Positions 2,784-55,647 of a stretch of DNA of 64,000 bases are shown one piece after another. This DNA is from Eubacteriales bacterium. GTDB lineage: Bacteria > Bacillota > Clostridia > Oscillospirales > CAG-272. How positions within the stretch are numbered: the first letter of the stretch is position 1; every line of letters begins with the position of its first letter. The stretch is taken from assembly GCA_045632345.1 (NCBI GenBank), contig JAZQWM010000082.1, positions 26,220 to 90,219 on the forward strand, read 5' to 3'. The position numbers were made by a program, and so were the translations under genes. The notes beneath the pieces were generated by a model. That model worked only from the letters and a program-made list of their open reading frames with translations, did not search any database and was not told where the DNA came from.

Positions 2784-2874
2784 ATAAACTATCTCCTTTA
2801 AATTAAAAATTAAATTGTCTGGGAAATAATCTATATCTAAATGAACCTCCTTTGCAGTCCATTACAAATGCATT

Positions 2875-2953
2875 GACCGACCGTTAGGGTGACCTAATGC
2901 TGTAAGCCTCAAGGGGCAATCCTCATAACAGCGTTCCAGAAGATTTGTCAGTC
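2875..2953 (-). promoter_or_regulatory. unclassified GC-rich structured 5' leader (candidate three-way junction) of the HNH gene
   Basis: Minus-strand pairings: GACUGAC/GUCGGUC (2947-2953 with 2875-2881), GCUGU/ACAGC (2928-2932 with 2899-2903), UUAGG-UCAC-CCUAA (2884-2897). GC content is clearly above the flanks. Confidence 0.3.
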
Positions 2954-2998
2954 GCCTTTAATTAAAAAAGGGGGTAGATTCGTTGTAACTGCATATTT

Positions 2999-3752: not shown

Positions 3753-3997
3753 AGCATGCTCCCTTCATATTTTATATTCAATATTATAATGTAGCCGCCT
3801 GCGTTTGTCAAGAGGCACGCATTTTTTACCGCTTACGCCAAAAATTAACCGCTTGTGCCAAAGGTATTGCATTTTGCTTCTATTATAGTAAAATAAAATT
3901 GTAAAGAATTTTTAATCTAATCTTGCTGATAGCTTACTGCTGGCGGCTAAGATAAAAAGGAGAGAAAAATGAAAAGATTATTTCTATTTTATTAGTA

Positions 3998-6109
3998 TTG
4001 TTAATGCTTGCTTCTGTTTCATCATTGCTTATTAGCTGCAAGACTAAAATTGACAGCGGAAAAGAGGAGGCAAAGCTGCTTTTAGCAAATGAAAGACTTG
4101 ATGAAAAGGTGCTTGCGAAAATTGATTTAGGCATGGACGGAACACAGGTTGCCAACCTAAATTCAGGCACACCGTTAAAGCTATCAAGCGATAGCCAATA
4201 TATGCGCTTATCAGACACCTTTGGCGTTCATTACACTTGGACGGAGTTTGAGCAGCATTCACACTCAATGGTTGAGTTTACACAGTTTATGAAATCCATT
4301 GAGCATCACGTTGAGGGGGCTGCAAGCGACATTGAAAGAATGAAAAATAGCATTGGCGTTACTGACAAGTGGGTTGATAGCGGCATAATTTCAAATGAGG
4401 AGCTTATGCTTCGCGTTTACGAAAACATGGATATGCTTTTAGTGAAGCAGCTTGAGCATAACGCTCTTGATATTTGCATACGCTACACAAACGAAAGCGC
4501 CAAGGACGTGTACGAAATTTACAGCTACTACAAATACACCGACGGCTCAACTGCAAGAATGAAGCTTGTTTATATTCCTGGCGAAAGGTACGAATGGTCA
4601 AGCCAGCATTCAACAGGCTTTGGCGATTACTTTATTGCGGAAAACAGCCGCGGATATTGGATAGCCACAAGATACGGCTTTAATGAAATGAACGCTAGCT
4701 TTACTCCGCTTATTATCAAGGACGGTCTTGGATACGGCGGATACGTTGATATAAACGCACCTTTCCACGACAGAGACGAATCAAGCATTGTAATCGGTGC
4801 GTACTCTGTTTTTGACCCTATAAATAACCGTGAGCTATTCCGTGTATATAAGACAGATTCAATGGCGGACATTGAGGTGTACTTCACAGCGATTAAGAGT
4901 GGATTTGTGTCCGTTTCAACCGACGATGCTTCATACGATGCAGAGGATAAAGTATATCAAACTGCTGTCCTTAATAAATTGGTTACGAAAAACGGTGAAT
5001 ATATAGCAGACGATTCAGATACCAGCTTAGGCAATTTTACGTTTAGCGGTGGCTACGTTCAGCACTACTACGGCGATAATTTTGACTACGGCAATATTAG
5101 ATTTACAATAAATTATGAGGACGGCAAGGACTTAAACGATTACGTTTTAGGCTTTGACGATTACTTAAAGTCATTAGGTCTTGAGCTTTACTGCAACATG
5201 GAAACGGTAAAGAAATCTCTTTACCACGGAGAGCTGTACTGTCAAGAATTTGACACCGCTTTTGAATGGAACGGGATTAAAATGTCAAGCTTTGAAAACG
5301 CGCTAAAAGCAAAGCAGATATTCCTTGACGCTACGGAAACAGCTCTTGGCTACTACGAAGAGGTTAAAGACTATCCAAAAACCAACACAAAGCAAAAGCT
5401 TTCAAGTGATGCCGATTTTGCAGATATTGATAATATCGTAATGGGCGAAAATACGTATTCAAACGGTGTTATTTCCGTTTCAAACGTTGGAATTTCCATA
5501 ACAGACACCGCCCTTTTTGAAAACGGACTTGAATACGTATTAAAGCTCGGTCTTGCTCTTTGTGATGAAAGCGGTAATCCGATTAGTGTTAACACGGTTG
5601 CCTTAAAGAGCGAAAATGAAAGCCCAATTTCATACACAGATGGCGACATAATGCTTACCGCAAGCGGAAATTACGTTGTGCCGAAAAATCTTGCAGAGGG
5701 CGATTACGTTTTAGTTGTGTATGCTGCCGACACAGACGGAATACGCGTGAGCAAAATGGAAAAGCTTGCATTTGTGCCAATAGATGAGGGCAAGCTCGAT
5801 TCAAGTGCTATGGATATTGAAATTTCAAGGATAAACGACAATTTCCATGCAACGTACACTATTAAAAATACACGCTACATTGAGTTGGCTGCCACAAAGG
5901 ACACATACTCCTATGAGGAAGTAAGACGTGTAATTATGCAAGAGGTTTTAGCATACGGCTATCCTGACAGCACTGCGGTATTGGAATATGAAAACGGAAG
6001 TGCGGTCGAGAAAAACGCTTCCCTTGGCAAAGGTACTTACCGAATGGTTGCATATTTCCCAACAAGCGATGGCATTGCACAAAGCTATGTGTATCTAACA
6101 ATAAAATGA
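3998..6109 (+). CDS. lipoprotein of unknown function (probable true start ATG 3969, out of frame by one base)
   Basis: Lipobox LLISC at the ORF N-terminus. ATG 3969 has a strong AGGAG RBS but hits TAG after 8 codons. One extra T in the T4 run 3987-3990 would give MKRLFLFLLVLLMLASVSSLLISC. Confidence 0.75.
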   Translation: MLMLASVSSLLISCKTKIDSGKEEAKLLLANERLDEKVLAKIDLGMDGTQVANLNSGTPLKLSSDSQYMRLSDTFGVHYTWTEFEQHSHSMVEFTQFMKSIEHHVEGAASDIERMKNSIGVTDKWVDSGIISNEELMLRVYENMDMLLVKQLEHNALDICIRYTNESAKDVYEIYSYYKYTDGSTARMKLVYIPGERYEWSSQHSTGFGDYFIAENSRGYWIATRYGFNEMNASFTPLIIKDGLGYGGYVDINAPFHDRDESSIVIGAYSVFDPINNRELFRVYKTDSMADIEVYFTAIKSGFVSVSTDDASYDAEDKVYQTAVLNKLVTKNGEYIADDSDTSLGNFTFSGGYVQHYYGDNFDYGNIRFTINYEDGKDLNDYVLGFDDYLKSLGLELYCNMETVKKSLYHGELYCQEFDTAFEWNGIKMSSFENALKAKQIFLDATETALGYYEEVKDYPKTNTKQKLSSDADFADIDNIVMGENTYSNGVISVSNVGISITDTALFENGLEYVLKLGLALCDESGNPISVNTVALKSENESPISYTDGDIMLTASGNYVVPKNLAEGDYVLVVYAADTDGIRVSKMEKLAFVPIDEGKLDSSAMDIEISRINDNFHATYTIKNTRYIELAATKDTYSYEEVRRVIMQEVLAYGYPDSTAVLEYENGSAVEKNASLGKGTYRMVAYFPTSDGIAQSYVYLTIK

Positions 6110-6139: not shown

Positions 6140-6174
6140 CTATTTTAGCGGTTGGTGGCTGGTGGCTGAGTATG

Positions 6175-6280
6175 TCTGCTTCGCAGAGCGATATAACCGA
6201 ATACATTCGGTAGCGATATGCTTTCGCCAAACGAAAGCACGATATTCCGCCTAAGGCGGAGCGATATGCACCTTCGGTGC
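6175..6280. repeat. mini-hairpin array A1 (five hairpins joined by GCGATAT-type linkers)
   Basis: tctgcttcgcaga-GCGATAT-aaccgaatacattcggt-aGCGATAT-gctttcgccaaacgaaagc-aCGATAT-tccgcctaaggcgga-GCGATAT-gcaccttcggtgc. Colinear with 15538-15666. Confidence 0.9.
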
Positions 6281-6364
6281 GTGCTGACCACTGACATAGC
6301 CTCCCTTGTGTAAAGGGAGGGGGACCACGAAGGTGGTGGAAGGATTGTCCTTTCACTGACAACT

Positions 6365-6396
6365 AAAAAAATCCACGGATTGCTCCGTGGATTTTT
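6365..6396 (-). terminator. bidirectional rho-independent terminator (serves the minus-strand gene ending at 6400)
   Basis: A-run, tccacgga-ttgc-tccgtgga, T-run. The hairpin core cacggattgctccgtg recurs at 15427-15456. Confidence 0.85.
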
Positions 6397-6399
6397 GTA

Positions 6400-8733
6400 T
6401 TATTTCTTAATCTTGTACGTTACGTGTACTGCGTTACCGCCTGTTAAGAGAATCATCTCAACTGCTGTCTTTGAGAAGTCGCCAGCCTTAACGATAAGTG
6501 GCTTATTAAGTGTTCCTCTTGCAAGAACCTTAACCGTCTTTGCTCTCTTATCAATAAGCTTCTTTTCCTTCATTGAAGCAAGGTTAACAATATCGTGAGC
6601 CTCGAATGCATCAGATAACGTATCAACGTTAACGATCGCTTTCTTTGTATCCTTAGCGCTAACGTACTCAACGCCTTCCTCTACGTGAACGTCGATATGT
6701 TGTTCCTCAGCGATTTGGTCTGCATCCTCTGCGCTGATTTCTTCAACGATAACCTCGTGCTCCTCGTAAACCTCTTCGATTACTTCTTCTTCGATTACTT
6801 CTTCGATAATTTCAACAGGAGCTTCCTCGATAACTTCCTCGGCCACCTCTGGGGCTACCTCTGGGGCTACCTCTTCGATAATTTCAACAGGAACTTCCTC
6901 AGCTACCTCTTCTACCACCTCAGGAACAGCCTCTTCAACTACTTCCTCGTTAGGTACTTCAGCAACTAATGCTTCTTCCTCAGTTACCTCTTCAACCGGC
7001 TTTGTTGATTTAACTATGATTGCATCATCAGGAATTAAGAGCTTAATTAAGCCACGCTCGATAAGTGGAGCATTTTCCTCATATGGATACATTGCAATAT
7101 AGTCAACTTCCTTAGCCTTTGGTTTTGTTTCAATTTCAAACTTAGCCATTACGATGTCAACAAGCTCCTTAGCCTTTCTAAGACCTAAGCCGCTCTTAAC
7201 CTTAACAAGCATTGGAACGTCTGCGAAGATTTTTGCATCGATTGCTTCGTGGTGATACTTGGACTTGTCAAATTCGTTAGGATCAAGGTTGCAGTAGAGA
7301 CAAATTGTCTTACCTCTTAGCTTCATCTTGAAGAGCTGATCTCTACCTCTGTTGTAGCTATCAAACTTCCAGCTAATTCTTGACTTAACGCCCTTGAATG
7401 ATAAAATGTAATTCTTTAATTCATTGTAATAACCCTTAACTGTGTCATCACTTTGAATGATGTTAGCAGTAATGCTACGGCTGAGCTTAATGTCAAGCTT
7501 GTTGCCGTCCTTATCAAAGTATGTAGGAACAACTACTGTGTTAGCTTCATCGGAAACCTCAACTACCTCCGGAGCTGGCTCCTCAGCCACTTCCTCGATA
7601 ATCTCAACAGGAGCTTCCTCGACAACCTCTTCAATAACCTCAACAGGTACTTCCTCAACTACTTCCTCAACTACTTCCTCAACCACCTCTGGGGCTACCT
7701 CTTCAGCTGCAGGGATTGGTTCTTCAACAACCTCAACAACCTCTTCAATAGCTTCCTCAGCAGTCTTTTCGGATTCTTCCTCAGCTACCTCTTCGATAAT
7801 TTCAACAGGAACTTCAGGGGCTACTTCCTCGGCTACCTCTTCGATAATTTCAACAGGTACTTCTTCAACAACCTCTGGGGCTACCTCTTCAACAACATCT
7901 TCAACTACCTTCTCAACAGGAGCCTCTGCTTCGAGAACGCCGCGTGAGAATAATTGAATTGTAAAGATAGATTCAGCGCCACTCTTATCAAGAATGATTT
8001 CGCCGTCCTTCTTAAAGCCCCAGCCTAAGAAGTTGTCATACTGCTCGTTTTCTTCAGGTAAAGAAAGCTTTAAGTAGTGTGATTCCTTATAGATATTTTT
8101 GTTAGCTACGCTGTCTGTAAAGAGAAGGTCAACGATAGCCTCGCTATTTGTTGGTACACCCGCTTGGCTAACTGGGCTTTCTTCAAATATTGGATAAAGA
8201 TTAATTACAAATGTTGCTTCAACGTCTTCCTTGGTGAGAATTGGCGCTTCATCAGGTGCAAAGCCCCAGCCATCAATTTCAACACCGTCGATTTGCTCAT
8301 CAGGAAGCTTTGTGTTAAGAACGAAGAATTCCTTCTTAACTGCTATATCCTCATCAGCGTCCATGTAATTAAACTCGATAGAAACTGCACTATTTGTTTC
8401 AACGTCCTCCCAAATTGTGTAAAGAGTTGTTGAACGAACTAAACAAAAAACAGAGTTTTCAATAGGCTTGGATTTACCAAGAACCTTTGACCAACCGATA
8501 AGCTTCTTGCCACTCTTTGCAGAGCCGTGGAGCTTAACCTTTTTGAAAAGCGGATGCTTTTCTGTGTGGATAACTACGTCGCCTTCTGTATCCACGTAAG
8601 TAATTGTTGGGCGAACTGTTAAAAGAACGATGCCCATTGTAAGAGCAATAACGGCAACAACGGCGAATAACCATGGGTTAACGTCGAAGATTGAAAGTGT
8701 TACTGCTTGGTTTAACAAACAAGTAAAATTCAT
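6400..8733 (-). CDS. membrane-anchored protein with InlB-B-like repeats, two acidic E/V/P low-complexity regions and a uL15-like C-terminal domain
   Basis: GGAGG RBS 7 nt before ATG 8733 (the track start 8787 is less likely). N-terminal TM helix. GW...TLYxIW-type repeats. C-terminus KVLARGTLNKPLIVKAGDFSKTAVEMILLTGGNAV resembles the ribosomal protein L15 C-terminus. Confidence 0.75.
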   Translation of the reverse strand: MNFTCLLNQAVTLSIFDVNPWLFAVVAVIALTMGIVLLTVRPTITYVDTEGDVVIHTEKHPLFKKVKLHGSAKSGKKLIGWSKVLGKSKPIENSVFCLVRSTTLYTIWEDVETNSAVSIEFNYMDADEDIAVKKEFFVLNTKLPDEQIDGVEIDGWGFAPDEAPILTKEDVEATFVINLYPIFEESPVSQAGVPTNSEAIVDLLFTDSVANKNIYKESHYLKLSLPEENEQYDNFLGWGFKKDGEIILDKSGAESIFTIQLFSRGVLEAEAPVEKVVEDVVEEVAPEVVEEVPVEIIEEVAEEVAPEVPVEIIEEVAEEESEKTAEEAIEEVVEVVEEPIPAAEEVAPEVVEEVVEEVVEEVPVEVIEEVVEEAPVEIIEEVAEEPAPEVVEVSDEANTVVVPTYFDKDGNKLDIKLSRSITANIIQSDDTVKGYYNELKNYILSFKGVKSRISWKFDSYNRGRDQLFKMKLRGKTICLYCNLDPNEFDKSKYHHEAIDAKIFADVPMLVKVKSGLGLRKAKELVDIVMAKFEIETKPKAKEVDYIAMYPYEENAPLIERGLIKLLIPDDAIIVKSTKPVEEVTEEEALVAEVPNEEVVEEAVPEVVEEVAEEVPVEIIEEVAPEVAPEVAEEVIEEAPVEIIEEVIEEEVIEEVYEEHEVIVEEISAEDADQIAEEQHIDVHVEEGVEYVSAKDTKKAIVNVDTLSDAFEAHDIVNLASMKEKKLIDKRAKTVKVLARGTLNKPLIVKAGDFSKTAVEMILLTGGNAVHVTYKIKK
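6700..7000. repeat. in-frame degenerate tandem repeats encoding (E-E-V-x) acidic tract 1
   Basis: Repeated gaagaagt/ctcttcgataatttcaacagg units. They generate spurious antisense ORFs. Confidence 0.8.
7550..7940. repeat. in-frame degenerate tandem repeats encoding acidic tract 2
   Basis: Same unit family as 6700-7000 (ctcttcgataatttcaacagg occurs in both tracts). Confidence 0.8.
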
Positions 8734-8920
8734 AAAAAACCTCCAAAAAATATTCGATACGTACTGTTCGTTGTTATAATTATACAATAATATTATTTAT
8801 TTGTCAACAAATAATTATTAAAATCAGTAAAGTTTTTTGTGAAATTTAGACACTCTGTCCACCGTTTTTTCATTTTGGAGCGTCTTGATTAACAAAAATA
8901 ACGTCAAACTAAATTTACTA

Positions 8921-10289: not shown

Positions 10290-10348
10290 GTTCGCTTCGC
10301 TCACAGGGGATAGGATATAGGAGATAGGGGCTCGCTTCGCTCACAGGG
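10290..10348. repeat. composite repeat: 18-mer / GWYAG heptad tract / 18-mer
   Basis: gttcgcttcgctcacagg (10290-10307), ggggataggatataggagatagggg (10306-10330, GATAG/TATAG/GATAG spaced 7 nt), ggctcgcttcgctcacaggg (10329-10348). Confidence 0.9.
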
Positions 10349-15317: not shown

Positions 15318-15426
15318 ATTTCAAAACGATTTGAAAAAATCAAGCGGTCAGCAAGCAGTGCCACGCCCCCGTCCCCTGTCACCGCTAAATTGATGAAAAG
15401 TTTTCAGTATAACATATTGTTTTAAT

Positions 15427-15456
15427 AAAAAATCACGGATTGCTCCGTGATTTTTT
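15427..15456. terminator. bidirectional rho-independent terminator
   Basis: A-run, atcacgga-ttgc-tccgtgat, T-run. Same core as 6365-6396. Confidence 0.85.
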
Positions 15457-15537
15457 GTTGGAATTATTGCCCACAAATTACGATTTGTCGCATTAAAATC
15501 AAAAAACTAATTTTGCTGACTGCAGGCGGTTAACACA

Positions 15538-15666
15538 TCTGCTTCGCAGAGCGATATGTCGTGCAATGCACGCGCGATATAACCGAATAACTTCGGTAGC
15601 GATATGCTTTCCCTAGGCGAAAGCTCGATATTCCGCCAAAGGCGGAGCGATATGCACCTTCGGTGC
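15538..15666. repeat. mini-hairpin array A2 (six hairpins, GCGATAT linkers)
   Basis: tctgcttcgcaga-GCGATAT-gtcgtgcaatgcacgc-GCGATAT-aaccgaataacttcggt-aGCGATAT-gctttccctaggcgaaagc-tCGATAT-tccgccaaaggcgga-GCGATAT-gcaccttcggtgc. Confidence 0.9.
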
Positions 15667-15700
15667 GTGCTGACGGCTAACAGCTAACAGCTAACGGCTA
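15667..15700. repeat. heptad tract (gctgacg gctaaca gctaaca gctaacg gcta) overlapping the GH78 stop codon
   Basis: CTRAC core every 7 nt on the plus strand, which reads GTTAG on the GH78 coding strand. Confidence 0.85.
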
Positions 15701-18819: not shown

Positions 18820-18848
18820 ATTTTACAATATATAAGCTGATATGTCAA
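18820..18848 (-). promoter_or_regulatory. putative promoter of the SGNH-GH78 operon
   Basis: Minus strand reads TTGACA-17 nt-TAAAAT. Confidence 0.65.
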
Positions 18849-18900
18849 TAGCAATATAGCCTTACAGCCATAAACGTTATTAAATCAACAACTAATCTAG

Positions 18901-18959
18901 CTACCCGCTAACGGCTGGCGTTGCCCTGCTGACCACTGACCACTGACCACTGACCACTC
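18901..18959. repeat. heptad tract, nine units in register, ending in perfect (ACTGACC)x4
   Basis: ctacc..ctaac..ctggc..tgccc..ctgac x4, core positions 18901, 08, 15, 22, 29, 36, 43, 50, 57. Confidence 0.95.
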
Positions 18960-18992
18960 AAAAAAAAGCACGGCTACATAGGTAGCCGTGCT
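18960..18992 (-). terminator. rho-independent terminator (minus strand)
   Basis: agcacggctac-atag-gtagccgtgct with an 8-nt A-run on the plus strand (T-run on minus). Confidence 0.85.
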
Positions 18993-18997
18993 TTACG

Positions 18998-20482
18998 TTA
19001 TTTCGCTGCTTTCATTGAGTGGTTGTAGCCGTAGATTTTGATATCTCCATTGTCATCAGGCTCAAGCTGATACATAGTATCTCTTGTGTTGGCAATAAGA
19101 CGGTAGAAATCGTCGCTTGCTGAGCAGATTGCAGAAAGGAGCAAGGAGCGGCCGGACTGCGCCTCGGACTCCTTATCGTCAAGAGCGCCAATTAAAAGGT
19201 ATAGAACGCCCATAGATTTCATCTTGCGCTTTACAAAACTTACCGCTTGCTGCTCAATCTCGCGGCAATCGTGCATCTTGGCAGTCTTTTCCTTATCTGA
19301 CACAAGGTGCATAAGACTACGGAGAGCGGAAAGCTTGGTTTGGCACTTGTTAAGCTCCTCTATGATTTGCTTTCTATATCTGTAATCGTTATCCTTGATT
19401 TCGCATTCAAGCTCAGGTAAAAGCTGTGAAAGTGTAGTCATTTCGTCGCCCTTACGGCGTGGGGACTTGTGGATTTCTGTCTTGATTGCATTTACAACCT
19501 TTTGCATTGAGGTCTTAACCGTATCGTCATACTTAGCGCCGGATGTGCTATCGGACTTCTTTGAATACTTAAAGAACTGTGGCTTATTAAGCTTGTTGCC
19601 GTTTGCGTCCTTGGTGGACTTATTACGGATAGCTTTAAGGATATCGCCGGACTTTACGCCGTAATCGCGCTTTGCTCTGTCAATTTCCATACCTGAAAGC
19701 ACCGCGAGCTTGCAGATTTCAAGGTATAAATCCTTATCGTCCTCTCCCTTTGAGAGCTTGTCCCAATAGATACTGTTAAGGAACTGGGAAAGGTTTACAA
19801 TTTTGCCTATCTTGTTGTCGGAAATATCGTTATTCATTTGATAGATAGGAAGATTCTTGGACTTGGATTCAGCGCCGCAGTATGGCACAAGGAACTTGTT
19901 ATAGCTCTTCTTAGCTTCCATATAGCATCTAAGCTCAGGGTCGTACTTAAAATAGCCCTCTAAAATTGATTCCTCACATGGACATTCTACCTTCTTGTAC
20001 TCGTAGGTATCCTCGCCAATTTTATATTCGTCCTTGCTCTTATATGGAACAACAATAGCAATTAGCTTGCCGTCTCTTATACAAACGTTGTCAACTAAGT
20101 CAGTTGCAAAGTCAATACGGTATCATGCGCGTAAATAAACGTAGCCTGTGTGGGACTTCTTTTTGTTGAATTCAAGTAAATCCTTGTCAAAGGTAACGTT
20201 GATAACTGAAAGAGTTGCGCCTGATTCATCGTTGCCAACTGCATAGGTGCCAATCTCAAACTTGCCGTTTATCTTTCTTTGTGCTTTAGCCTTTTCGTAC
20301 TCTTCCTTAAGAGCCTGAACCTCAAGACTGTTATATAGAAATGAATTGAAGCGCTTTAAGTCAAGCTCTCCATCCTCATTGTTAACCTTAAAGGAGCTGC
20401 CTGCTAATTCGAGCTCTACTAGCTCCTTAGCGTCGATTGTTAAAATTCTGTACTTTGGGATTTTCATTTTCTTTACTCTCAT
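18998..20482 (-). pseudogene. 495-codon reading frame interrupted by a single in-frame TGA (20123-20125); unknown function, mobile-element-like
   Basis: Codon-by-codon check shows that track ORFs 20123-20482 and 18998-19921, plus the 67 codons between them, share one frame with no other stop. AGGAG RBS sits before ATG 20482, and there is none before ATG 19921. Confidence 0.7.
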
Positions 20483-27362: not shown

Positions 27363-27794
27363 TTATAGCTTTGCAATATCGCTATCAGTAATAAGTCTGA
27401 GTCCTGCATTTTGCAAAATTGCTTCTGCCTCTTCGTTTTCCTCAACTCTTAATACCACGTAAGCATGTCTTTCTGTACGAGCCATGAAAGCGTACATATA
27501 TTCAATATTGATGCTTGCTTCGTCAAGCGCTTTAAGTGCTGAGGTTAGCTTGCCAGGCTGGTCTCCTATTTTTACGCCAACTACGTTGATTGTTTTAATA
27601 AGGTAGCCAGCCGCTAAAAGAACCTCTTCAGCCTTTTTAGTATCGTTTACGATAAGTCTTAAAATACCGAACGCCTCTGTTTCTGCAATAGATAACGCTC
27701 TTAAATTGATATTGTTGTTTGCAAGGATTTCAGTTACTGAAGCAACTGTTCCCTTTTCATTTTGTACGAATACTGTTACTTGCTTAATTGCCAT
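27363..27794 (-). CDS. ACT domain-containing protein
   Basis: Two ACT-like halves. This is the typical partner gene downstream of PaaK-family ligases. Confidence 0.8.
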   Translation of the reverse strand: MAIKQVTVFVQNEKGTVASVTEILANNNINLRALSIAETEAFGILRLIVNDTKKAEEVLLAAGYLIKTINVVGVKIGDQPGKLTSALKALDEASINIEYMYAFMARTERHAYVVLRVEENEEAEAILQNAGLRLITDSDIAKL

Positions 27795-27807: not shown

Positions 27808-29115
27808 TTACACTAATTTACGCTTGTCAATAACGCGAACTGCCTTGCCTTCGCTTCTTGCGATTGTCTTTGGAGCAACTAAATGTACCTTTGGATTTAT
27901 GCCAAGCATTGCTTTCATAGCTTCGCTAAGTGATTTTTCCATAGAAATAATCTCGCCAACCTTATCGGTAAATTGCTCTGGTGCAAGCTCTACGTTAACC
28001 TCAAAGGTATCTGTATTGTTTACACGGTCAACTACGATTTGGTAGTTTGGCTGATAGCCCTCGTTTAAGAGAACTGTTTCAATTTGGCTTGGGAATACGT
28101 TTACGCCACGGATAATAAGCATATCATCAGTTCTGCCCATAGGCTTAGCCATTTTAACTAACGTACGACCACAGGAGCATTTTTCTCTTGAAAGAACACA
28201 AATATCGCGTGTGCGGTAACGAAGAAGCGGGAACGCTTCCTTATCAAGTGATGTGAAAACAAGCTCTCCCTTTTCTCCCTCAGGTAAAACCTCTCCTGTA
28301 TCAGGGTTGATAATTTCCGCATAGAAGTGGTCCTCATTTATGTGCATGCCTGTTTGCTCACAGCATTCAAATGCTACGCCAGGGCCAGACGTTTCTGTAA
28401 GACCGTAAATATCGTACGCCTTAATACCAAGTGTTGCTTCGATATTCTTTCTCATTTCCTCAGTCCAAGGCTCAGCACCGAAAATGCCCGCCTTTAAAGG
28501 AATATCCTCAGGCTTATAACCCTGCTCCTTTAAGGATTCGCCAATATATGCAGCGTATGATGGTGTGCAGCAAATAATTGATGCGTTTAAGTCCATCATA
28601 AATTGAATTTGTCTATCTGTGCTGCCTGATGACATAGGAAGTGTAAGACAGCCTACCTTATGAGAGCCACCGTTAAGACCTGCGCCACCTGTAAATAGAC
28701 CGTAGCCGTAAGCTACTTGGCACACATCCTTTTTGCTTCCGCCTGCTGCCACAATAGCTCTTGCACAGCAATCCTCCCATAAATCAATATCGTTTTGAGT
28801 GTAGAACGCCACAACTCTACGGCCTGTTGTACCTGATGTTGAGTGAATTCTTACACATTCATCAAGAGGCTTTGCTAAAAGACCGTATGGGTATGCATCT
28901 CTTAAATCAGCCTTTGAAAGGAAAGGAAGCTTATATAAATCATCAATTCCCTTAATATCCTCAGGCTTAACGCCTTTTTCGTCCATTAAATTACGGTAAT
29001 ACTCTACGTTTTCGTAAACGTGCTTTACCTGCTTAACAAGCTTTTCTGATTGGAGCTTTTTCATGTCCTCTCTGGACATGGTTTCAATTTCTCTTTGGTA
29101 ATAGTTTTTTTCCAT
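27808..29115 (-). CDS. phenylacetate--CoA ligase family protein (PaaK / F390 synthetase-like adenylating enzyme)
   Basis: Length and motifs (SSGTTGRxV, YGLTE, C-terminal GKAxRVIDxR) match the PaaK family. Confidence 0.88.
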   Translation of the reverse strand: MEKNYYQREIETMSREDMKKLQSEKLVKQVKHVYENVEYYRNLMDEKGVKPEDIKGIDDLYKLPFLSKADLRDAYPYGLLAKPLDECVRIHSTSGTTGRRVVAFYTQNDIDLWEDCCARAIVAAGGSKKDVCQVAYGYGLFTGGAGLNGGSHKVGCLTLPMSSGSTDRQIQFMMDLNASIICCTPSYAAYIGESLKEQGYKPEDIPLKAGIFGAEPWTEEMRKNIEATLGIKAYDIYGLTETSGPGVAFECCEQTGMHINEDHFYAEIINPDTGEVLPEGEKGELVFTSLDKEAFPLLRYRTRDICVLSREKCSCGRTLVKMAKPMGRTDDMLIIRGVNVFPSQIETVLLNEGYQPNYQIVVDRVNNTDTFEVNVELAPEQFTDKVGEIISMEKSLSEAMKAMLGINPKVHLVAPKTIARSEGKAVRVIDKRKLV

Positions 29116-29164: not shown

Positions 29165-29479
29165 TTCTTTTCTCATGTAGAAAACAAAACGCCCTCTGCA
29201 TTCCGAAAAGAATACAGAGGACGAGAAACTATCCCGTGGTACCACCTCAGTTCGCCACCGTCTCACAACGGCAGCCTTTTCAGGTACTAACATACCTTAG
29301 TTCTATGACGGGAACACCCGTTGCATCCTACTAGGGAAACCCCATTCAGCGCACAGCTAACAGAATGAATTCGTGAAGGATAACTCCCTTGCCTCGCACC
29401 AAACGGCAATTCTCTGAACGGGTTATTCCAGCCTACTACTTTCTGCTCATCGCATTTACATGAATAATTTTTCATTCAT
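29165..29479 (-). promoter_or_regulatory. T-box riboswitch leader, specifier UUC (Phe), with intrinsic terminator
   Basis: On the minus strand: stem I GCGAUGAGCAGAAAGUAGUA, AGAGA box, distal GGUGCGA loop, specifier loop ACGAA-UUC-A (29369-29367), T-box core GAGGUGGUACCACGGG (29247-29232), terminator cctctgtattc-ttttcg-gaatgcagagg + U-run (about 29220-29178). Confidence 0.85.
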
Positions 29480-33036: not shown

Positions 33037-33057
33037 TAAACACGGATACGTGTTTAC
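33036..33057 (+). terminator. hairpin overlapping the stop codon (weak terminator, no clear T-run)
   Basis: gtaaacacg-gata-cgtgtttac. Confidence 0.4.
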
Positions 33058-33058
33058 T

Positions 33059-33161
33059 AGCTAAATTTGCGTTGCACGCAAGCTAAATTTGGTCGCGATA
33101 TGCTTTCGCCAAGCGAAAGCGTGATATGCACCTTCGGTGCGCGCTAACCGCTGACAGCTGC
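33059..33161. repeat. mini-hairpin array A3 + CTRWC heptad tract
   Basis: aGCTAAATTT-gcgttgcacgc-aaGCTAAATTT-ggtc-GCGATAT-gctttcgccaagcgaaagc-gTGATAT-gcaccttcggtgc-gcgctaaccgctgacagctgc. The last two hairpins are shared with A1 and A2. Confidence 0.9.
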
Positions 33162-33185
33162 AAACAACTGAAAGGAGTGAACCCC

Positions 33186-35520: not shown

Positions 35521-35755
35521 CAAAACCTCAGAGTTTTGGTTTTATAGTTATGAGTTTGGCTCTGCCAAACGTTATGATGTGCTACCGCACAGTTATGATT
35601 TTGCCTACGGCAAAAGTTATGATATGATTGCCTAGCTAACTTCAAGCGTGGCTCCGCCACTCATAACTGCGAGCGTCGCGAGCATCATAACTACGCTAAG
35701 CGTATCATAGCTTGCCGTTAGGCAATCATAGTTGATTTTCGCGTTACGAAAATCA
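35521..35755. repeat. mini-hairpin array A4 with GTTATGAT linkers that switch to the complementary ATCATAAC/ATCATAG linkers midway
   Basis: Ten hairpins (e.g. gtttggc-tct-gccaaac, gtgc-tacc-gcac, ttttgcc-tac-ggcaaaa, gtggc-tcc-gccac, acgc-taa-gcgt, ttgcc-gtta-ggcaa, tgattttcg-cgtta-cgaaaatca). The last hairpin contains the guaA stop codon. Confidence 0.85.
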
Positions 35756-38543: not shown

Positions 38544-38574
38544 TTCGTTCCTTTCAGTCACTTCATTCAAGGAG

Positions 38575-39112
38575 TCAGGGGACAGGGGTTCGCTTCGCTC
38601 ACAGGGATAGTTAGTAAACAATTTTTTATAACTAATCCACAGCTATCTCGCATTTTTCCAAATCACCTGAATAAATCCTACCTTTAAAGTGCATTTAATC
38701 ATTTAGACTTAATTTTTTCACTATTGCATTTATTAGTTTAGCTACTTCTTTACAACCTTGCATAACAGTATCTACTGTTTCTTCTTTTTCAAAATAGCCA
38801 AGCATTTTACAAATTTCTAACTGTGTTTCAAGTTCTGCTCTTGACGCATTTGCGATAAATAAAAACTGTATGTATTCCTTTGTGCTTCTTCGCTCGTATC
38901 CTTCTGCAATGTTGGAAGGAATAGAAATAACGCTTCTTCTCATTTGATCTGCTAAAGCAAACCTCTCATTGTTTGGTAATTGATTTATAAGCCCATATGT
39001 ATCTTTTACCAAATCCATTGCTTTTTGCCAAACCACTAAATCTCTATAATCTCTCATAAACTAATCCCCCTGTGAGCAAGGCGAACCCCTGTCTCCTGTC
39101 CCTTGTCCCCTG
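38575..39112 (-). mobile_element. inverted-repeat-bounded cassette carrying a four-helix-bundle gene (IVS-like / MITE-like element)
   Basis: Left arm is tcaggggacaggggttcgcttcgctcacaggg (38575-38606). The reverse complement of the right arm (39066-39112) is caggggacaagggacaggagacaggggttcgccttgctcacaggggg. The core of about 25 nt matches with 2 mismatches. Confidence 0.65.
38695..39057 (-). CDS. four-helix-bundle protein (23S rRNA intervening-sequence protein family, Avd-like)
   Basis: MRDYRDLVVWQKAMDLV...ISIPSNIAEGYERRSTKEYIQFL...ELETQLEI matches the family signature closely. Its RBS (AGGGGG) lies inside the cassette arm. Confidence 0.9.
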   Translation of the reverse strand: MRDYRDLVVWQKAMDLVKDTYGLINQLPNNERFALADQMRRSVISIPSNIAEGYERRSTKEYIQFLFIANASRAELETQLEICKMLGYFEKEETVDTVMQGCKEVAKLINAIVKKLSLND

Positions 39113-45985: not shown

Positions 45986-46170
45986 GGGGATAGGGTATAG
46001 GGGCTCATTGCATTCGCAGGGGTTCGCTATGCTCACAGGAGAAATTAGTTCGAACGAAAATAACGAAGAAAAGAAATAAGCACTTTCAAGTGGCGTGGAT
46101 AATATAAAATGTCAAAGGATAATGCGATAGAGTAATTACCCTATCCCCTATCCCCTGACCCCTGTCCCCT
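45986..46170 (+). mobile_element. gene-less inverted-repeat element in the pheS-pheT spacer (same family as 38575-39112)
   Basis: Left arm ggggatagggtatagggg (45986-46003) plus 18-mer ggttcgctatgctcacagg (46021-46039). Right arm ccctatcccctatcccctgacccctgtcccct (46139-46170). The arms pair at 16 of 17 positions. Confidence 0.65.
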
Positions 46171-46174
46171 TGAG

Positions 46175-46193
46175 TGACTGAAAGGAACGAAAT
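46175..46193 (+). promoter_or_regulatory. shared RBS leader TGACTGAAAGGAACGAA(AT) immediately 5' of the pheT ATG
   Basis: The 17-nt string is identical to the reverse complement of 38544-38560, upstream of the esterase ATG. A related ACTGAAAGGAGTGAAC lies at 33167-33182. Confidence 0.8.
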
Positions 46194-48683: not shown

Positions 48684-48723
48684 GGCTCGCTTCGCTCACA
48701 GCCGTCAGCCGTCAGCGGTTAGC
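48684..48723. repeat. 18-mer + GWYAG heptad tract
   Basis: ggctcgcttcgctcacag, then ccgtcag ccgtcag cggttag c. Confidence 0.9.
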
Positions 48724-48765
48724 AAGTTTTGCTCAATGCATATTTTGACCATATAATTCATTGTG

Positions 48766-48795
48766 TAGCTACTAACCACTAGCCACTTACCACTA
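48766..48795. repeat. heptad tract (tagctac taaccac tagccac ttaccac ta)
   Basis: 7-nt periodicity. It reads as the GWYAG type on the minus strand, downstream of the minus-strand gene. Confidence 0.8.
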
Positions 48796-48823
48796 AAAAA
48801 GCAACCGAAATCGGTTGCTTTTG
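48795..48823 (-). terminator. rho-independent terminator (minus strand)
   Basis: AAAAAA-gcaaccga-aa-tcggttgc-TTTTG (bidirectional form). Confidence 0.85.
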
Positions 48824-54338: not shown

Positions 54339-54410
54339 CTAACAATCACTAATCTATCCCGCTGACCGCTATCGGCTAACCGCTGACAGCTGTGAGCGAC
54401 CGAAGGGAGC
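54339..54410. repeat. CTRWC heptad tract + 18-mer variant forming the 5' UTR and RBS of the GT2 gene
   Basis: ctaac..ctatc..ctgac..ctatc..ctaac..ctgac..ctgtg (69-73, 76-80, 83-87 and 90-94 in exact 7-nt register), then ctgtgagcgaccgaagggagc supplying AGGGAG 8 nt before the ATG. Confidence 0.85.
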
Positions 54411-54417: not shown

Positions 54418-55647
54418 ATGAAACTTTCAGTTATTATCTGTGTATATAACACAGAAAAGCAGTATTTCGAGGAATGCTTAAAATCAATTAGAAAATCAAC
54501 TCTTAAGGATTACGAAATACTTGTTATTGACGACGGCTCAACTACTGACTATTCGGACGTTATTGAGAAATATGAGCCAAGATACGTAAAAACAGAAAAC
54601 AGAGGTCTTTTTGCCGCAAGACTTTTTGCTTTAACTATTGCTAAGGGCGATTACGTAACGTTTGTTGACAGCGACGATTCCGTTACCTTCAACTACCATC
54701 AGCCTATGGTTAATGCGGCTATCAATCTTGATGCTGACGTTGTTATAAACGACTGGGCATTCCACACGGAAAGAACAAGATATTTCTGTGTAAACGACCC
54801 GCTTATCCGTGAAGATATTACCTTAAACGGCGATGAGTGCTTAAAGGAGTTTGCCGCACAGGAGGGACGCGCTCACTCATACTTTGTTCATTGGAATAAG
54901 GTTACAAAAAGAAGCGTACTCTTAAAGGCGAAGGCAGAGCTTGAGTCCACCCACATTATTATGCATAAGCATACGTATTCTGAGGACGCTATTATAAACT
55001 TCTTTGTGTTCAGAAACGCTAAAAAGGTTACAAATATCCACACAGGTTACTATTTTTACAGAATTCATGAGGATCAAAGCGTAAACGCTTCAAACAGGGA
55101 CAAGCTTATTTCTCAAATTGATGATATGGCAAGATCCTTTAATATTATGCTTGTAAATATCAGTAAGAATATGTACGCAAAGGAAATCAAGTACAGTATT
55201 CTTAAGTGGCGTGAGCTAATGTCAAGAACACATTACTCCTACGCTAAGGCTGGCAAGCATTCTGACCTTTACGATTACATTAAAGAAGCATACGAGGTTG
55301 ACACGCTTTCTAAGTCAACTACTAAGGACGGCGAGCTTTATGCAAAAACTCAGCTTTTAGGCGATAATTTCCTTGAAATTGATAAATGCCTACGCAACAT
55401 CTACTTTACAAAAGCAAACGTTACCGTAATGTACGATAAGAGCGACCTTTACGTTGTCCGCACAATGCGATACATTGAAAGAATGAAGCGAGGCGAAACG
55501 GAAACAGAGCAAAAAACCCTCTTTGTTCCAACCAAGGTAGTAAGCGCAAAAAATCGCTTCTTACATAACCATCTTGTGTACAACATAGGGCTACGCCTTT
55601 TCAAAAAGGGCTCAAAAATCCGCGCGTTTTTAAAGAGTAAATTCTAA
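54418..55647 (+). CDS. GT2 family glycosyltransferase (soluble) with C-terminal domain of unknown function
   Basis: KLSVIICVYNTEKQYFEECLKSI...YEILVIDDGSTD and DSDD motifs. Confidence 0.85.
   Translation: MKLSVIICVYNTEKQYFEECLKSIRKSTLKDYEILVIDDGSTTDYSDVIEKYEPRYVKTENRGLFAARLFALTIAKGDYVTFVDSDDSVTFNYHQPMVNAAINLDADVVINDWAFHTERTRYFCVNDPLIREDITLNGDECLKEFAAQEGRAHSYFVHWNKVTKRSVLLKAKAELESTHIIMHKHTYSEDAIINFFVFRNAKKVTNIHTGYYFYRIHEDQSVNASNRDKLISQIDDMARSFNIMLVNISKNMYAKEIKYSILKWRELMSRTHYSYAKAGKHSDLYDYIKEAYEVDTLSKSTTKDGELYAKTQLLGDNFLEIDKCLRNIYFTKANVTVMYDKSDLYVVRTMRYIERMKRGETETEQKTLFVPTKVVSAKNRFLHNHLVYNIGLRLFKKGSKIRAFLKSKF

Follow-up and report, generated by a model that had tools for sequence, protein, structure and literature searches.

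Tandem heptanucleotides in the spacer upstream of a promoter raise the question of whether they act on the adjoining gene, by changing length or by binding a factor, or whether they are the remnant of an element of another kind. This question is addressed here for a perfect four-unit array located upstream of an SGNH-GH78 operon in a 64,000-nucleotide stretch of DNA (hereafter the window) of an uncultured gut Clostridia bacterium. A sequence-only reading of the window had drawn attention to the array, to its distance from the -35 of the operon, and to its possible change in length by slippage.

The array at 18929-18958 and its gap in relatives

The array and its setting comprise the following features:
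18929 to 18958, minus strand: perfect heptad array, (GGTCAGT)x4 when read along the flanking genes, CTGACCA x4.3 on the plus strand
18900 to 18928, minus strand: degenerate continuation of the array, plus-strand GCTACCC GCTAACG GCTGGCG TTGCCCT
18960 to 18994, minus strand: intrinsic terminator of the upstream gene 18998-19921 (minus strand), hairpin 18965-18994 with a 13-bp stem, then T8
18820 to 18848, minus strand: promoter of the SGNH-GH78 operon, TTGACA (18848-18843), 17 nt, TAAAAT; 11/12 matches

The perfect four-unit microsatellite reported by the sequence-only reading is real, as TRF returned CTGACCA x4.3 at 18929-18958 with 100% matches and a score of 60. The same reading had counted nine heptads in register with a CT[GA][AT]C core, which holds for the four perfect units and for the unit at 18908 (CTAAC), but not for those at 18901 (CTACC), 18915 (CTGGC), and 18922 (TGCCC); the stretch 18900-18928 is therefore regarded as a degenerate continuation, in which one of four units has the CTRWC core and no more than a GCT frame is retained. 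The genes on both sides of the array are on the minus strand, and the T-run of the terminator (hairpin 18965-18994) is separated by 2 nt from the start of the array. The array thus lies between terminator and promoter, at a measured distance of 81 nt from the TTGACA (-35) hexamer, which agrees with the approximately 80 nt given before. SGNH and GH78 were assigned by Pfam, and the true start of the SGNH gene is ATG 18792. The strand of the flanking genes, the adjoining terminator, and the unit families in relatives had gone unnoticed in the earlier reading.

A complementary arm or an ORF belonging to the array was looked for in this genome's sequence and was not found. The unit is a 7-nt direct repeat and not a REP- or REPIN-like imperfect palindrome of ~35 nt. 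Self-structure of the (GGUCAGU)4 array was considered as an explanation and dropped, because the prediction gives weak G-U pairing only; the z-score of the region stems from the terminator.

Orthologous loci were obtained by homologue search followed by contig look-ups; exact-protein look-ups of both flanking genes gave no match, and a scan of JGI metagenome proteins revealed no orthologue of the flanking genes. The terminator is conserved at all orthologous loci and the promoter is conserved in the orthologues. The gap between them holds four units in the window, five in L001, 2+5 in L022 and L023, and approximately one in L002, a degenerate array in L025, and no units in L026, L027, and L029, and copy number thereby differs at one locus among close relatives (4, 5, 7, ~1, and 0), as in STRR-type repeats. 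Moreover, the orthologous gaps also carry other small modules, with 0 to ~400 nt between array and promoter, and a block of ~200 nt, bordered by a heptad-containing direct repeat, distinguishes L022 from L002. Since 0, 1, 5, or 7 units occur in the gap of relatives, the array changes length and is not a conserved regulatory site; the differing unit counts of these gaps (0 to 2+5) bear out the length change that had been anticipated for the perfect run. Most likely, the array has no specific effect on the SGNH-GH78 operon, and in practice it is a hypervariable strain marker rather than a regulator of the rhamnosidase operon.

Period-7 arrays of the window and their polarity

About twenty heptamer arrays, typically of 3-5 units, are present in the intergenic DNA of this bacterium. 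The lag-7 autocorrelation of intergenic DNA was 0.310, as compared to 0.282 at lag 6 and 0.286 at lag 8, with harmonics at 14 and 21, and coding DNA of the window displayed no lag-7 signal by the same analysis. In-register period-7 runs of the CTRWC core numbered 12 of at least two units and 6 of at least three units, against a mean of 0.8 and zero, respectively, in 200 first-order Markov simulations, and core runs at periods 5, 6, and 8-13 numbered 0-3. Eleven of the 12 runs are intergenic, although the window is 88% coding, and a stricter lag-7 scan retained 4 tracts, each of them intergenic and of period 7. Other STRR-type traits, i.e., head-to-tail 7-nt units in at least three copies and many dispersed arrays with a bias towards non-coding DNA, are likewise found in the window, and arrays also occur in relatives, where the same unit families in L001, L002, L022, and L026 extend the family beyond the window.

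Among the 14 other tracts listed in the sequence-only reading, 11 are clear, those at 6281-6300 and 38575-38588 have two units only, and that at 15341-15385 is weak. The tracts form, as had been claimed, a real family in two flavours with a common CTRWC core, and the pentamer recurs in every array of this genome. Besides the array at 18929-18958 and the cassettes described below, the following arrays were annotated:
3925 to 3952, plus strand: degenerate 3'-arm-type array GCTGATA GCTTACT GCTGGCG GCTAAGA, preceding gene 3998-6109; absent from the list of the earlier reading
6146 to 6300, no strand assigned: G-rich array (TGGTGGC) after a terminator, then hairpin plus GCGATAT-linker modules, then GCTGACC ACTGACA
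10306 to 10330, plus strand: GGGGATA GGATATA GGAGATA GGGG, between two GTTCGCTTCGCTCACAGGG units and 20 nt past the SHMT stop codon
15284 to 15317, plus strand: 5'-arm-type array AGCAGTC AGCGGTT AGCCGTC AGCGGAT after an aldo/keto reductase gene, preceded by hairpin unit GGTTCGCTACGCGAAC
15667 to 15700, plus strand: array GCTGACG GCTAACA GCTAACA GCTAACG, the complement of which starts at the GH78 stop codon, in sense
33141 to 33161, plus strand: 3'-arm-type array GCGCTAA CCGCTGA CAGCTGC, overlapping the listed ORF start 33126, with hairpin-linker modules before it
48699 to 48796, no strand assigned: inverted pair GTCAGCC x2 GTCAGCG GTTAGC ... CTACTAACCACTAGCCACTTACCACTA between two convergent terminators
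54339 to 54394, plus strand: 3'-arm-type array CGCTGAC CGCTATC GGCTAAC CGCTGAC in the 5' leader of gene 54418-55647
55686 to 55865, no strand assigned: inverted pair AGCCGCC AGCCGTT AGCAGTC AGCC ... GCTGGCGGCTAA, with hairpin-plus-linker modules inside and two convergent terminators outside

The ORF listed at 33126 probably has its true start later. The small modules beside the heptad arrays consist of variable hairpins and constant GCGATAT, GGTAAAT, or GTTATGA linkers, with hairpin units of ~13-20 nt, or ~20-27 nt including the adjoining linker. A DNA scan with GATATGCACCTTCGGTGC gave mainly chance matches in GC-rich contigs, as well as six contigs with similar hairpin-plus-CGATAT arrays, in which no extra heptads were found. 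At gathering thresholds, Rfam returned no family for any repeat module, and a scan of 38 window proteins detected no transposase, RAYT, HUH domain, or reverse transcriptase. The unit sequences, periods, or orientations did not agree with integron attC core sites (GTTRRRY), with TRAP- or CsrA-type binding repeats, or with Rho utilisation sites, which were therefore dropped as candidates.

The polarity of the arrays and their frequent inverted pairing had been missed before. When the arrays were re-read by core, GWYAG was in sense in 13 of 13 orientable arrays at 3' ends, and CTRWC was in sense in 8 of 8 at 5' ends, excluding the 5' arm (39086) of the four-helix-bundle (4HB) gene itself; a plain G/C count was less clean, with 11 of 15 at 3' ends. 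Read by core, the arrays thereby follow the rule of Rehm et al. (2015), with the G-rich strand in sense after stop codons and in antisense before starts. All six inverted pairs, recognised by eye in spacer sequences, run from G-arm to C-arm. Most arrays are found at the 3' ends of housekeeping genes, and sister arrays follow the stop codons of SHMT, pheS, and GH78. The 18929 array and several others are located beyond terminators, some of them beginning straight after the terminator T-run, and an RNA stem or RNA processing can therefore not be their role at those positions.

PF05635 cassettes with inverted heptad arms

The sole PF05635 gene of the window lies between protein-coding genes and is enclosed by heptad arms, and an ORF-less relative of this cassette occupies the pheS-pheT spacer:
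38695 to 39057, minus strand: PF05635 four-helix-bundle gene ('23S rRNA intervening sequence protein', bAvd-like), 120 aa, Pfam E 3e-37
39064 to 39110, minus strand: cassette 5' arm, GGGGACA AGGGACA GGAGACA GGGG plus TTCGCCTTGCTCACAGGGGGA
38575 to 38606, minus strand: cassette 3' arm, CCCTGTGAGCGAAGCGAA plus CCCCTGT CCCCTGA
45986 to 46170, plus strand: ORF-less cassette relative in the pheS-pheT spacer, GGGGATA GGGTATA GGGG ... CCCTATC x2 CCCTGAC CCCTGTC CCCT

The best PDB match of the 4HB protein is XCC0516 (entry 2GSC, E 4e-22). The 5' arm doubles as the source of the Shine-Dalgarno sequence of the ORF, and the 3' arm is followed by leader GTGACTGAAAGGAACGAA and then by the ATG of the next gene (38543). 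The arms of this cassette (38575-39110), which had not been recognised as stem arms in the earlier reading, pair in both the MFE and the centroid fold to give a predicted stem of ~40 bp that encloses the ORF (z -5.7). At the pheS-pheT locus (genes identified by Pfam) both ends align with the cassette ends, and the arms pair in the predicted fold (z -3.1). Hence, the terminal inverted repeats and long predicted stem of IVS-type elements are present at 38575-39110 and 45986-46170 and not at 18929, and an enclosed PF05635 ORF is present at 38695-39057 and absent from the 18929 locus and the pheS-pheT element. The window element is not in helix 25 or 45 of 23S rRNA, the Azospirillum locus discussed below being the only one in 23S rRNA. 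Most window arrays are not beside a 4HB gene, of which there is one in 64 kb.

Inverted heptad arms surround the PF05635 gene at 7 of 7 distinct Clostridial loci, the window's own included, and among plasmid loci (cyanobacteria, Bacteroidota, and the true Azospirillum 23S helix-45 IVS) heptad arms were found at ~15 of 16, at least 11 of which are inverted. In Xanthomonas, (GGGAATC)4, which is repeat #15 in the table of Rehm et al. (PMC4692102), overlaps the XCC0516 start codon; XCC0516 is the one PF05635 gene that was looked up within the set of 242 genes linked to 186 X. campestris repeats. Of 48 distinct PF05635 loci in IMG/VR, 26 had a period-7 tract upstream and 16 had one downstream, and the flanks were inverted at 38. 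With near-duplicates still included, the corresponding period-7 counts were 35 of 61 upstream and 22 of 61 downstream, against an expectation of ~2.7 per flank window, summed over the 61 loci; other periods gave 0-2. The strict period-7 test was passed by only 54% of the IMG/VR loci upstream and 33% downstream, the arm polarity was seen at about two thirds of the loci in this survey, and a few loci (Pseudanabaena, Oscillatoria, L137) have direct instead of inverted flanking arrays. In a 102 kb Riemerella control the only substantial period-7 arrays, A/T-rich simple sequence aside, were the two flanking the 4HB gene; a 50-kb Picosynechococcus control was uninformative, as TRF gave no hits even at the 4HB flanks, where the arms are short.

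Units vary widely from cassette to cassette and from phylum to phylum. The arms of the L080 cassette (CAGTGGGTAGTGGTTAGTGGTCAGT and CACTAATCACTAACCACTATC) belong to the unit family of the 18929 array, and the 5' arm unit of the P0219 cassette (GTTCAGT) is identical to GGTCAGT at 6 of 7 positions, with equal phase and orientation. STRR-like ATTGGGG and CAACAGC arrays flank 4HB genes at IMG/VR loci L089-91 and L111. Among the loci compared, no cassette recurred in identical form at a second site, and the comparable P0147 and P0219 contigs each represent one locus that was sampled repeatedly.

The periodicity, enrichment, polarity, and rapid turnover of the arrays, together with the association of inverted heptad arms and PF05635 genes in several phyla, are best explained by a common element family: the 18929 tract is probably a solo array of the 5'-arm type of a family of IVS-like elements, and one of the lineage-wide heptamers of the STRR or long-SSR type. 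The full element would be an IVS-like cassette, consisting of a 5' heptad arm, an optional small ORF that encodes an Avd-like four-helix-bundle protein (PF05635), and a complementary 3' arm, and would be inserted in sense, with co-directional genes on either side. Arrays of this type are polar: the purine-richer GWYAG-type strand (here GGTCAGT) points 5' to 3' out of the upstream gene, and its CTRWC-type complement reads into the downstream gene. In RNA, the arms may form a long stem, as is predicted around the cassette ORF, comparable to the stem that RNase III cuts in 23S rRNA intervening sequences, and this enzyme may process such elements outside rRNA as well. We infer that solo arrays derive from IVS-like cassettes, as we do the manner in which the elements spread. 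The 18929 array would occupy a dispensable gap, from terminator to next promoter, and may grow and shrink via slipped-strand mispairing or recombination. As a wider and only tentative proposal, the heptamer arrays of cyanobacteria, Xanthomonas, Beggiatoaceae, Bacteroidetes, and gut Clostridia might be the footprint of one widespread IVS-like cassette family, in which arrays are stem arms, solo arrays and ORF-less pairs are derivatives, and the encoded Avd-like pentameric four-helix-bundle protein recognises the heptads (approximately one subunit per unit), controlling processing or spread of the element.

Alternative readings and known heptamer systems

Arrays with a pentamer core common to the genome, a strict polarity, a usual size of 3-5 units, and in several cases a start right at a terminator T-run might also be functional binding arrays, in which each heptad is bound by a single subunit of an oligomeric nucleic-acid-binding protein and the arrays act as insulators or as 3'-end stabilisers by terminators. 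The binder might be a pentameric Avd-like four-helix-bundle protein, in keeping with the five chains of the XCC0516 crystal (2GSC; Lin 2006, as cited in PMC3936711), or a cold-shock-domain protein, in keeping with the cold-shock and S1 proteins proposed for TAACTGA heptamers (PMC4679880), on DNA or RNA. However, orthologous positions are not conserved, with 0-7 units or other modules in one and the same gap, and the units diverge so greatly among cassettes and phyla that a single binding specificity does not fit; both the binding function and these binders are therefore considered unlikely.

A comparably small chance is given to independent neutral microsatellites, which would arise de novo in any non-coding DNA, unrelated to cassettes, 7 nt being the easiest length for the polymerase to slip. 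Such an origin is in line with the differing copy number among close relatives and with the over-representation of heptamer SSRs in many bacterial genomes, for which a polymerase footprint has been suggested (Mrazek 2007, as cited in PMC4692102), but it leaves unexplained the common core and strict polarity, the inverted pairing inside spacers, the conserved flanking units GTTCGCTTCGCTCACAGG and GCACCTTCGGTGC, and the period-7-specific excess at PF05635 flanks in unrelated phyla (35 upstream and 22 downstream of 61, versus ~2.7).

Switching of the SGNH-GH78 operon by the array is not supported, and a phase-variable contingency locus, in which gain or loss of 7-bp units alters expression of the operon, is very improbable. 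A perfect four-unit run 81 nt upstream of the -35, the length of which differs in relatives, is reminiscent of the heptanucleotide SSR that controls expression in H. influenzae from a position upstream of hmw1A/hmw2A (according to the accounts of that locus in PMC8262952 and PMC12721329). Nevertheless, the array is outside the promoter core, and in none of the positions of contingency SSRs (-35/-10 spacer, 5' UTR, 5' coding region), relatives keep promoter and terminator despite 0-7 units and from 0 up to ~400 nt of other inserted modules, sister arrays follow the SHMT, pheS, and GH78 stop codons in a population of arrays mostly at housekeeping-gene 3' ends, and a run of four units is short by the measure of high-rate switches. 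An equally low probability is given to G-quadruplex or i-motif structures, which have been proposed for the GGGNATC and GGGGAYT repeats: in the GGGGAYA flavour (10306-10330, 39086-39110, 45986-46003) there are four G-tracts, as is preferred in Xanthomonas and Nostoc (PMC4692102), but GGTCAGT has GG tracts only, short of the at least four tracts of GGG+ on one strand that define a G-quadruplex, and the GTYAGCN family has none, and since these arrays match the G-rich flavour in position and polarity, G4 formation is not the common denominator.

The 18929 repeat is of a kind long known, and unexplained, in cyanobacteria and Xanthomonas, and the evidence links heptamer repeats to the paired arms of PF05635 cassettes, i.e., to the IVS-like family favoured here. 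In several bacterial phyla, heptamer arrays rank with the most abundant of the repeats that lack an explanation, and they have served in strain fingerprinting since the 1990s; PF05635 proteins are common too and, beyond a relationship to the DGR accessory protein Avd, have no assigned function. The physical link between arrays and PF05635 makes these two puzzles experimentally approachable and, if true, would explain the published polarity rule of heptamer repeats, the 'four helix bundle' genes inside cas, restriction-modification, acc, phe, and aro operons, and the breaks in metagenome assemblies at such loci in these lineages.

The STRR heptanucleotides of heterocystous cyanobacteria, reportedly described by Mazel et al. 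in 1990, are said to include the units CCCCART, TTGGTCA, and CAACAGT. They resemble the present arrays in their tandem 7-nt units, several families per genome, dispersal, and intergenic position; TTGGTCA is identical to GGTCAGT at 6 of 7 positions, and the window flavour CCCCTRT resembles CCCCART. They differ in host, since the window belongs to an uncultured gut Clostridia bacterium (T-box leader, Clostridia MAG relatives) and not to a heterocystous cyanobacterium, and a cyanobacterial origin, considered in view of the STRR-like repeats, was rejected on these two grounds; a literature search found no report of such arrays in Firmicutes. The small dispersed repeats (SDR) of Nostoc, reportedly found embedded in tandem heptamers by Elhai et al. 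in 2008 (a study cited in PMC3116915), share the interleaving of small hairpin units with 7-nt units, and the window sequences are unrelated to SDR families. REP, BIME, and REPIN sequences are ~35-nt imperfect palindromes that have a conserved 5' tetranucleotide and are mobilised by a RAYT transposase. They are likewise small intergenic repeats past gene 3' ends and between convergent genes, and strain-variable, but they are palindromes instead of tandem heptamers, and the 38 window proteins scanned include no RAYT.

The G-rich heptamer SSRs GGGAATC of Xanthomonas and GGGGA(C/T)T of Nostoc have the G-rich strand in sense just past stop codons and in antisense just before starts, favour spacers of aligned ORFs, number ~4 units, vary in length among close relatives, and are of unknown function; oligonucleotides of these repeats formed G4 in vitro (Rehm et al. 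2015, PMC4692102). The window unit GGGGAYA is one base apart from GGGGAYT of Nostoc and the positional rule is alike, whereas the 18929 flavour is not G-tract-rich. Rehm et al. drew no link from the repeats to PF05635 genes, despite the presence of repeat #15 at XCC0516 (PMC4692102). TAACTGA direct repeats of Beggiatoaceae, Cyanobacteria, and Bacteroidetes are intergenic, lie directly before start codons, number 2-6 copies or, in some species, as many as 43, and have a sporadic spread that suggests horizontal transfer (MacGregor 2015, PMC4679880). ACTGA is common to these repeats, to ACTGACC of the window, and to the ACTGAAN arm of the P0219 cassette, but the TAACTGA system has one dominant unit with a proposed role in translational regulation, whereas the window has several unit families and many arrays past terminators.

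In the 23S IVS of Coxiella, 2-3 tandem GACAGAT heptamers, in a strain-dependent number, precede the S23p ORF, and RNase III makes its 5' cut at the first heptamer; Coxiella is the only case in which cleavage of the IVS stem has been demonstrated (Warrier et al. 2016, PMC4990558). The window cassette differs from a 23S IVS in being located between protein-coding genes instead of in rRNA, with a stem known by prediction, and the 18929 array differs further as a lone arm with neither ORF nor partner. Nevertheless, the cassette shares with the 23S IVS (S23p / PF05635 ORF; Ralph & McClelland 1993) its terminal inverted repeats, its long stem, and an ORF of ~120 aa for a four-helix bundle, and the helix-45 IVS of Azospirillum has heptad arms, as does the cassette of the window.

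Period-7 arrays and other repeat modules

The sequence-only reading had proposed a heptad periodicity with the core CT[GA][AT]C (CTRWC; complement GWYAG), and this period-7 signal is real and specific. Autocorrelation at lag 7 reached 0.310 in intergenic DNA versus 0.28-0.29 at adjacent lags, with harmonics at 14 and 21, and no lag-7 signal was detected in the coding DNA of the window. The core formed 12 in-register runs of at least two units and 6 of at least three; 200 simulations gave a mean of 0.8 of the former and none of the latter, and periods other than 7 gave 0-3 runs. Intergenic DNA makes up 12% of the window, yet 11 of these 12 runs fall within it, as does every one of the 4 strict lag-7 tracts.

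Oriented by their core, the arrays nearest a gene 3' end carried GWYAG on the sense strand in 13 of 13 assessable cases and those nearest a start carried CTRWC (8/8, leaving out the 5' arm at 39086 that belongs to a PF05635 four-helix-bundle (4HB) gene), while inverted pairs in six spacers, read by eye, were always ordered G-type, then C-type. Rehm et al. (PMC4692102) described the same polarity rule for two heptamers, GGGAATC of Xanthomonas and GGGGAYT of Nostoc, which prefer spacers between aligned ORFs, count about four units and vary between close relatives. In our broad IMG/VR survey, the polarity was true of about two thirds of tracts.

Repeat modules of three kinds were present in 13 of the approximately 37 spacers:

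Heptad arrays, in two flavours as originally described: GCTRACN / GTYAGCN and CCCTRTC / GAYAGGG
Unit GTTCGCTWCGCKMACAGG, adjoining many heptad arrays
Runs of short hairpins with differing stems and constant 7-8-nt linkers (GCGATAT, GGTAAAT(T), GTTATGA(T))

Nine of 10 intergenic inter-linker units folded better than shuffled sequence. Hairpin-linker arrays lie at 6175-6280, 15538-15666, 33057-33140, 35540-35740 and 55711-55847, as well as in the compared loci L008, L010, L012 and L015-L017; their stems are all different, GTTATGA(T) also occurs as its complement, and heptad arrays usually abut them, resembling the Nostoc SDRs that are embedded in heptamers. The arrays at 6175-6280 and 15538-15666 have identical hairpins in identical order; at 55711-55800 and in L022 another inner set stands between an unchanged first and last hairpin. 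Similar CGATAT-plus-hairpin arrays were seen in unrelated metagenome contigs of 44-51% GC. Near-identical terminator hairpins occur at 6365-6399 and 15430-15462 (AAAAAATC(C)ACGGATTGCTCCGTG(G)ATTTTT) and at 59119-59161 and 62040-62084 (AAAAAAGCACTTCGGTTGAAGTGCTTTTTGTT); terminators may themselves be part of dispersed repeats.

Other features of the window are as follows:

2861-2986, minus strand: full-length match to the Rfam Staphylococcus-1 RNA (RF03112; 107.9 bits, gathering score 87.7), directly followed by the gene (1446-2783, minus) of a 445-aa protein that has an HNH endonuclease motif, an arrangement that recalls HNH-associated guide-RNA (HEARO/IscB-like) loci
29214-29459, minus strand: T-box leader preceding the genes of an AMP-binding (phenylacetate-CoA-ligase-like) protein (27808-29115) and an ACT-domain protein (27363-27794), an unusual T-box target
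6400-8787, minus strand: 795-aa ORF full of nested 12-72-nt tandem repeats (TRF matches 6773-7918), with a family match limited to its C-terminal 70 residues (ribosomal L15/L27A-type domain)

The array upstream of the SGNH-GH78 genes

The perfect run is CTGACCA x4.3 at 18929-18958, with zero mismatches. Nine heptads had been claimed, of which the four perfect units stand and 18900-18928 is a decayed tail: these 28 nt keep the GCT frame and have the core in one unit only. Both flanking genes are on the minus strand, which reads in this order:

Stop codon of a 307-aa protein of unknown family
Terminator hairpin (13-bp stem) and T8
GA, then (GTGGTCA)x4 and the degenerate tail
Unique sequence of about 50 nt
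Promoter TTGACA, 17 nt, TAAAAT, with 81 nt between array and -35, as had been estimated
SGNH hydrolase and GH78 rhamnosidase genes

Within the 64-kb window, neither a partner arm nor an ORF accompanies this array. A T-box leader and the closest relatives, which are Eubacteriales or Clostridia MAGs sampled from animal guts, indicate that the window belongs to a lineage of uncultured Clostridia. All relatives compared keep the promoter and the terminator, including its TTTTTTTGAG tail, and the interval between them is variable.

Contents of the orthologous gaps (amino acid identity to the window)
Window: 4 units
L001 (upstream gene, 88%): 5 units
L022/L023 (SGNH, 95%): GTGGTCA x2 and GTGGTTA x5, about 400 nt of small hairpin modules, (ATCCCCT)x5 abutting the -35
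L002 (upstream gene, 68%): about 1 unit and the second half of the L022/L023 block
L025 (SGNH, 85%): degenerate GCCGCCA array
L026/27/29 (SGNH, 80%): heptads absent, other hairpins present

L022 and L002 differ by about 200 nt, a block with a heptad-containing direct repeat at its borders. Because orthologous gaps differ in units and modules, the array changes length, in agreement with the earlier idea of a slippage-prone repeat family, and repeats of various kinds accumulate in the gap. No part of it is conserved in the manner of a regulatory site, and a regulatory role of the array at the SGNH-GH78 promoter is unlikely.

Heptad arms of 4HB gene cassettes

The window has a single PF05635 gene, whose product has XCC0516 of X. 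campestris as its best PDB match:

38695-39057, minus strand: 4HB gene (Pfam E 3e-37)
5' arm, sense: GGGGACA AGGGACA GGAGACA GGGG TTCGCCTTGCTCACAGGGGGA, then 6 nt and ATG ... TAA
3' arm, sense, about 90 nt past TAA: CCCTGTGAGCGAAGCGAA CCCCTGT CCCCTGA
Downstream of the 3' arm: leader GTGACTGAAAGGAACGAA and the ATG of the next gene

The arms are paired in both MFE and centroid folds, and the predicted stem, about 40 bp long, surrounds the ORF (-152.9 kcal/mol, z -5.7). The pheS-pheT spacer holds an ORF-less relative, both ends of which align with the cassette ends and whose arms pair in the predicted fold (z -3.1). A conserved leader, (T)GA(A)GTGACTGAAAGGAAC(G/A)AA, lies 3' of the 3' heptad arm and abuts the downstream ATG at several unrelated loci (window 38545-38562, 46171-46193 and 33165-33185; L030, L033, L079); the element seems to supply the downstream gene with a ribosome-binding site or to keep its site intact.

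Six more distinct Clostridial loci, with homologues of 58-79% identity, have a purine-rich 5' arm and a complementary 3' heptad arm (7/7 including the window).

Heptad arms (5' / 3') of the Clostridial loci
L030-32: GGGGACA GGAGACA / CCCTGTC or CCCTATC
L033/34 (same locus as in the window, 72% aa): GGGGATA or TAGGGAA / CCCTATC
L035-38: GTAGGGTATAGGATACAGGAGATAG / CCTAACT x5
P0147: GGGTGTA / CTACACC
P0219: GTTCAGT x5 / ACTGAAN x4
P0135: GGGGATA / CCCTATC

At all of these the 4HB gene is co-directional with both neighbours, and the apparent host operons include helicase-methyltransferase, YitT-asparaginase, prephenate dehydrogenase-DAHP synthase and topoisomerase-deaminase. Many homologues come from contigs shorter than 1.5 kb, which fits assembly breaks at repeats. 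At the P0147 locus (L059-L068), a 5' module of about 80 nt (heptad arm and next unique sequence) occurs once, twice or three times in tandem between metagenome samples, with the 4HB gene and 3' arm unchanged.

A tblastn search of 72,556 plasmids with the window protein matched 34 records, nearly all cyanobacterial, and also Riemerella, Gemmatirosa and Azospirillum. Among 16 inspected plasmid loci, short-period repeats accompanied the gene in about 15, and the arms were inverted in at least 11 (for example GGGAACA/TGTTCCC, GGGTGTA/CTACACC, GGTTYAA/AACCTTG, GGTGACA/TGTCACC, AGTCAGG/CCTGACT, GGGAAAA/TTTTCCC, GGAGATA/TCTCCTA). In Azospirillum the locus is a genuine intervening sequence (IVS) of 23S helix 45, with arms of heptads, and in a control of 102 kb of Riemerella DNA the two arrays at the 4HB gene were the only substantial period-7 arrays outside A/T-rich simple sequence. 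Exceptions were Gemmatirosa (L047; period-8 repeats, CCTGCCCT), Pseudanabaena (L046; AAAGCTA / AAAAGCC, 14 and 9 copies, direct rather than inverted) and Oscillatoria (L054; G-rich arrays on both sides, direct). In IMG/VR, 35 of 61 usable loci had a period-7 tract on the upstream side and 22 on the downstream side, 19 of them having both, against a background expectation of about 2.7 per flank window (summed over loci) and 0-2 for periods 5, 6, 8, 9 and 10; the 48 loci left after removal of near-duplicates gave 26, 16 and 14, with significantly inverted-complementary flanks in 38.

In the supplementary table of Rehm et al. (PMC4692102), Xcc repeat #15 (GGGAATC GGGAGTG GAGAATC GGGAATC) lies 6 nt past bccP and overlaps the start codon of XCC0516, whose PF05635 product has been crystallised. 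In the Coxiella 23S IVS, GACAGAT heptamers, two or three depending on the strain, precede the S23p start, with RNase III cutting at the first (PMC4990558). 23S_rRNA_IVP genes have been noted between cas genes (PMC3936711). Cassettes with heptad arms were seen between cas6 and cas4 in Anabaena sp. 90 and Pseudanabaena galeata and between cmr2 and cmr3 in Picosynechococcus PCC 7003 (cas/cmr loci L044, L046, L049/L058), which suggests that the reported cas-gene association of the family is cassette insertion into operon spacers.

Probable kinship of the array, and known heptamer repeats

Read in the direction of transcription, the 18929 unit is GGTCAGT, of the 5'-arm type and identical in 6 of 7 positions, in phase, to the P0219 5' arm GTTCAGT. 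Moreover, the arms of the L080 cassette (CAGTGGGTAGTGGTTAGTGGTCAGT / CACTAATCACTAACCACTATC) combine the GTGGTYA unit of this array and its L022 orthologue with the CTAACCA unit of window 48766-48796. In L080, where the arms are GTGGTYA / CTAAYCA heptads, the 4HB ORF (656-1021) lies within a single 504-codon open frame (103-1617) that reads through both arms and the 4HB gene in a different frame, and the flanks look like host-protein coding sequence; this cassette may have inserted in frame into the gene of a host protein.

We read the 18929 array as a putative solo 5'-arm-type array of the IVS-like element family. Against this reading, most heptad arrays have no adjoining 4HB gene, and an RNA stem cannot be the way in which a solo array, or one past a terminator, acts. 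Less probably, the heptads could be protein-binding arrays, or they could arise by slippage on their own and simply be put to use by 4HB cassettes. The scattered insertion contexts are the one ground for thinking that the cassettes may be mobile; among the cassettes compared, none recurred in identical form at a second site.

Judged from sequence, the PF05635 IVS-like cassettes of Clostridia, Cyanobacteria, Bacteroidota and Proteobacteria have predicted inverted arms that consist of heptamer arrays. This more interesting result falls outside the interval to which attention had first been drawn, and gives a testable origin to a repeat class previously without one. A literature search of incomplete coverage returned no general account that ties heptamer arrays to PF05635 genes, nor any paper describing such arrays from Firmicutes. 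The repeats look like the short tandemly repeated repetitive (STRR) heptanucleotides of heterocystous cyanobacteria, although their host here is an uncultured Clostridia lineage, and the 18929 tract is a new, Clostridial instance of such STRR or heptamer-SSR sequences.
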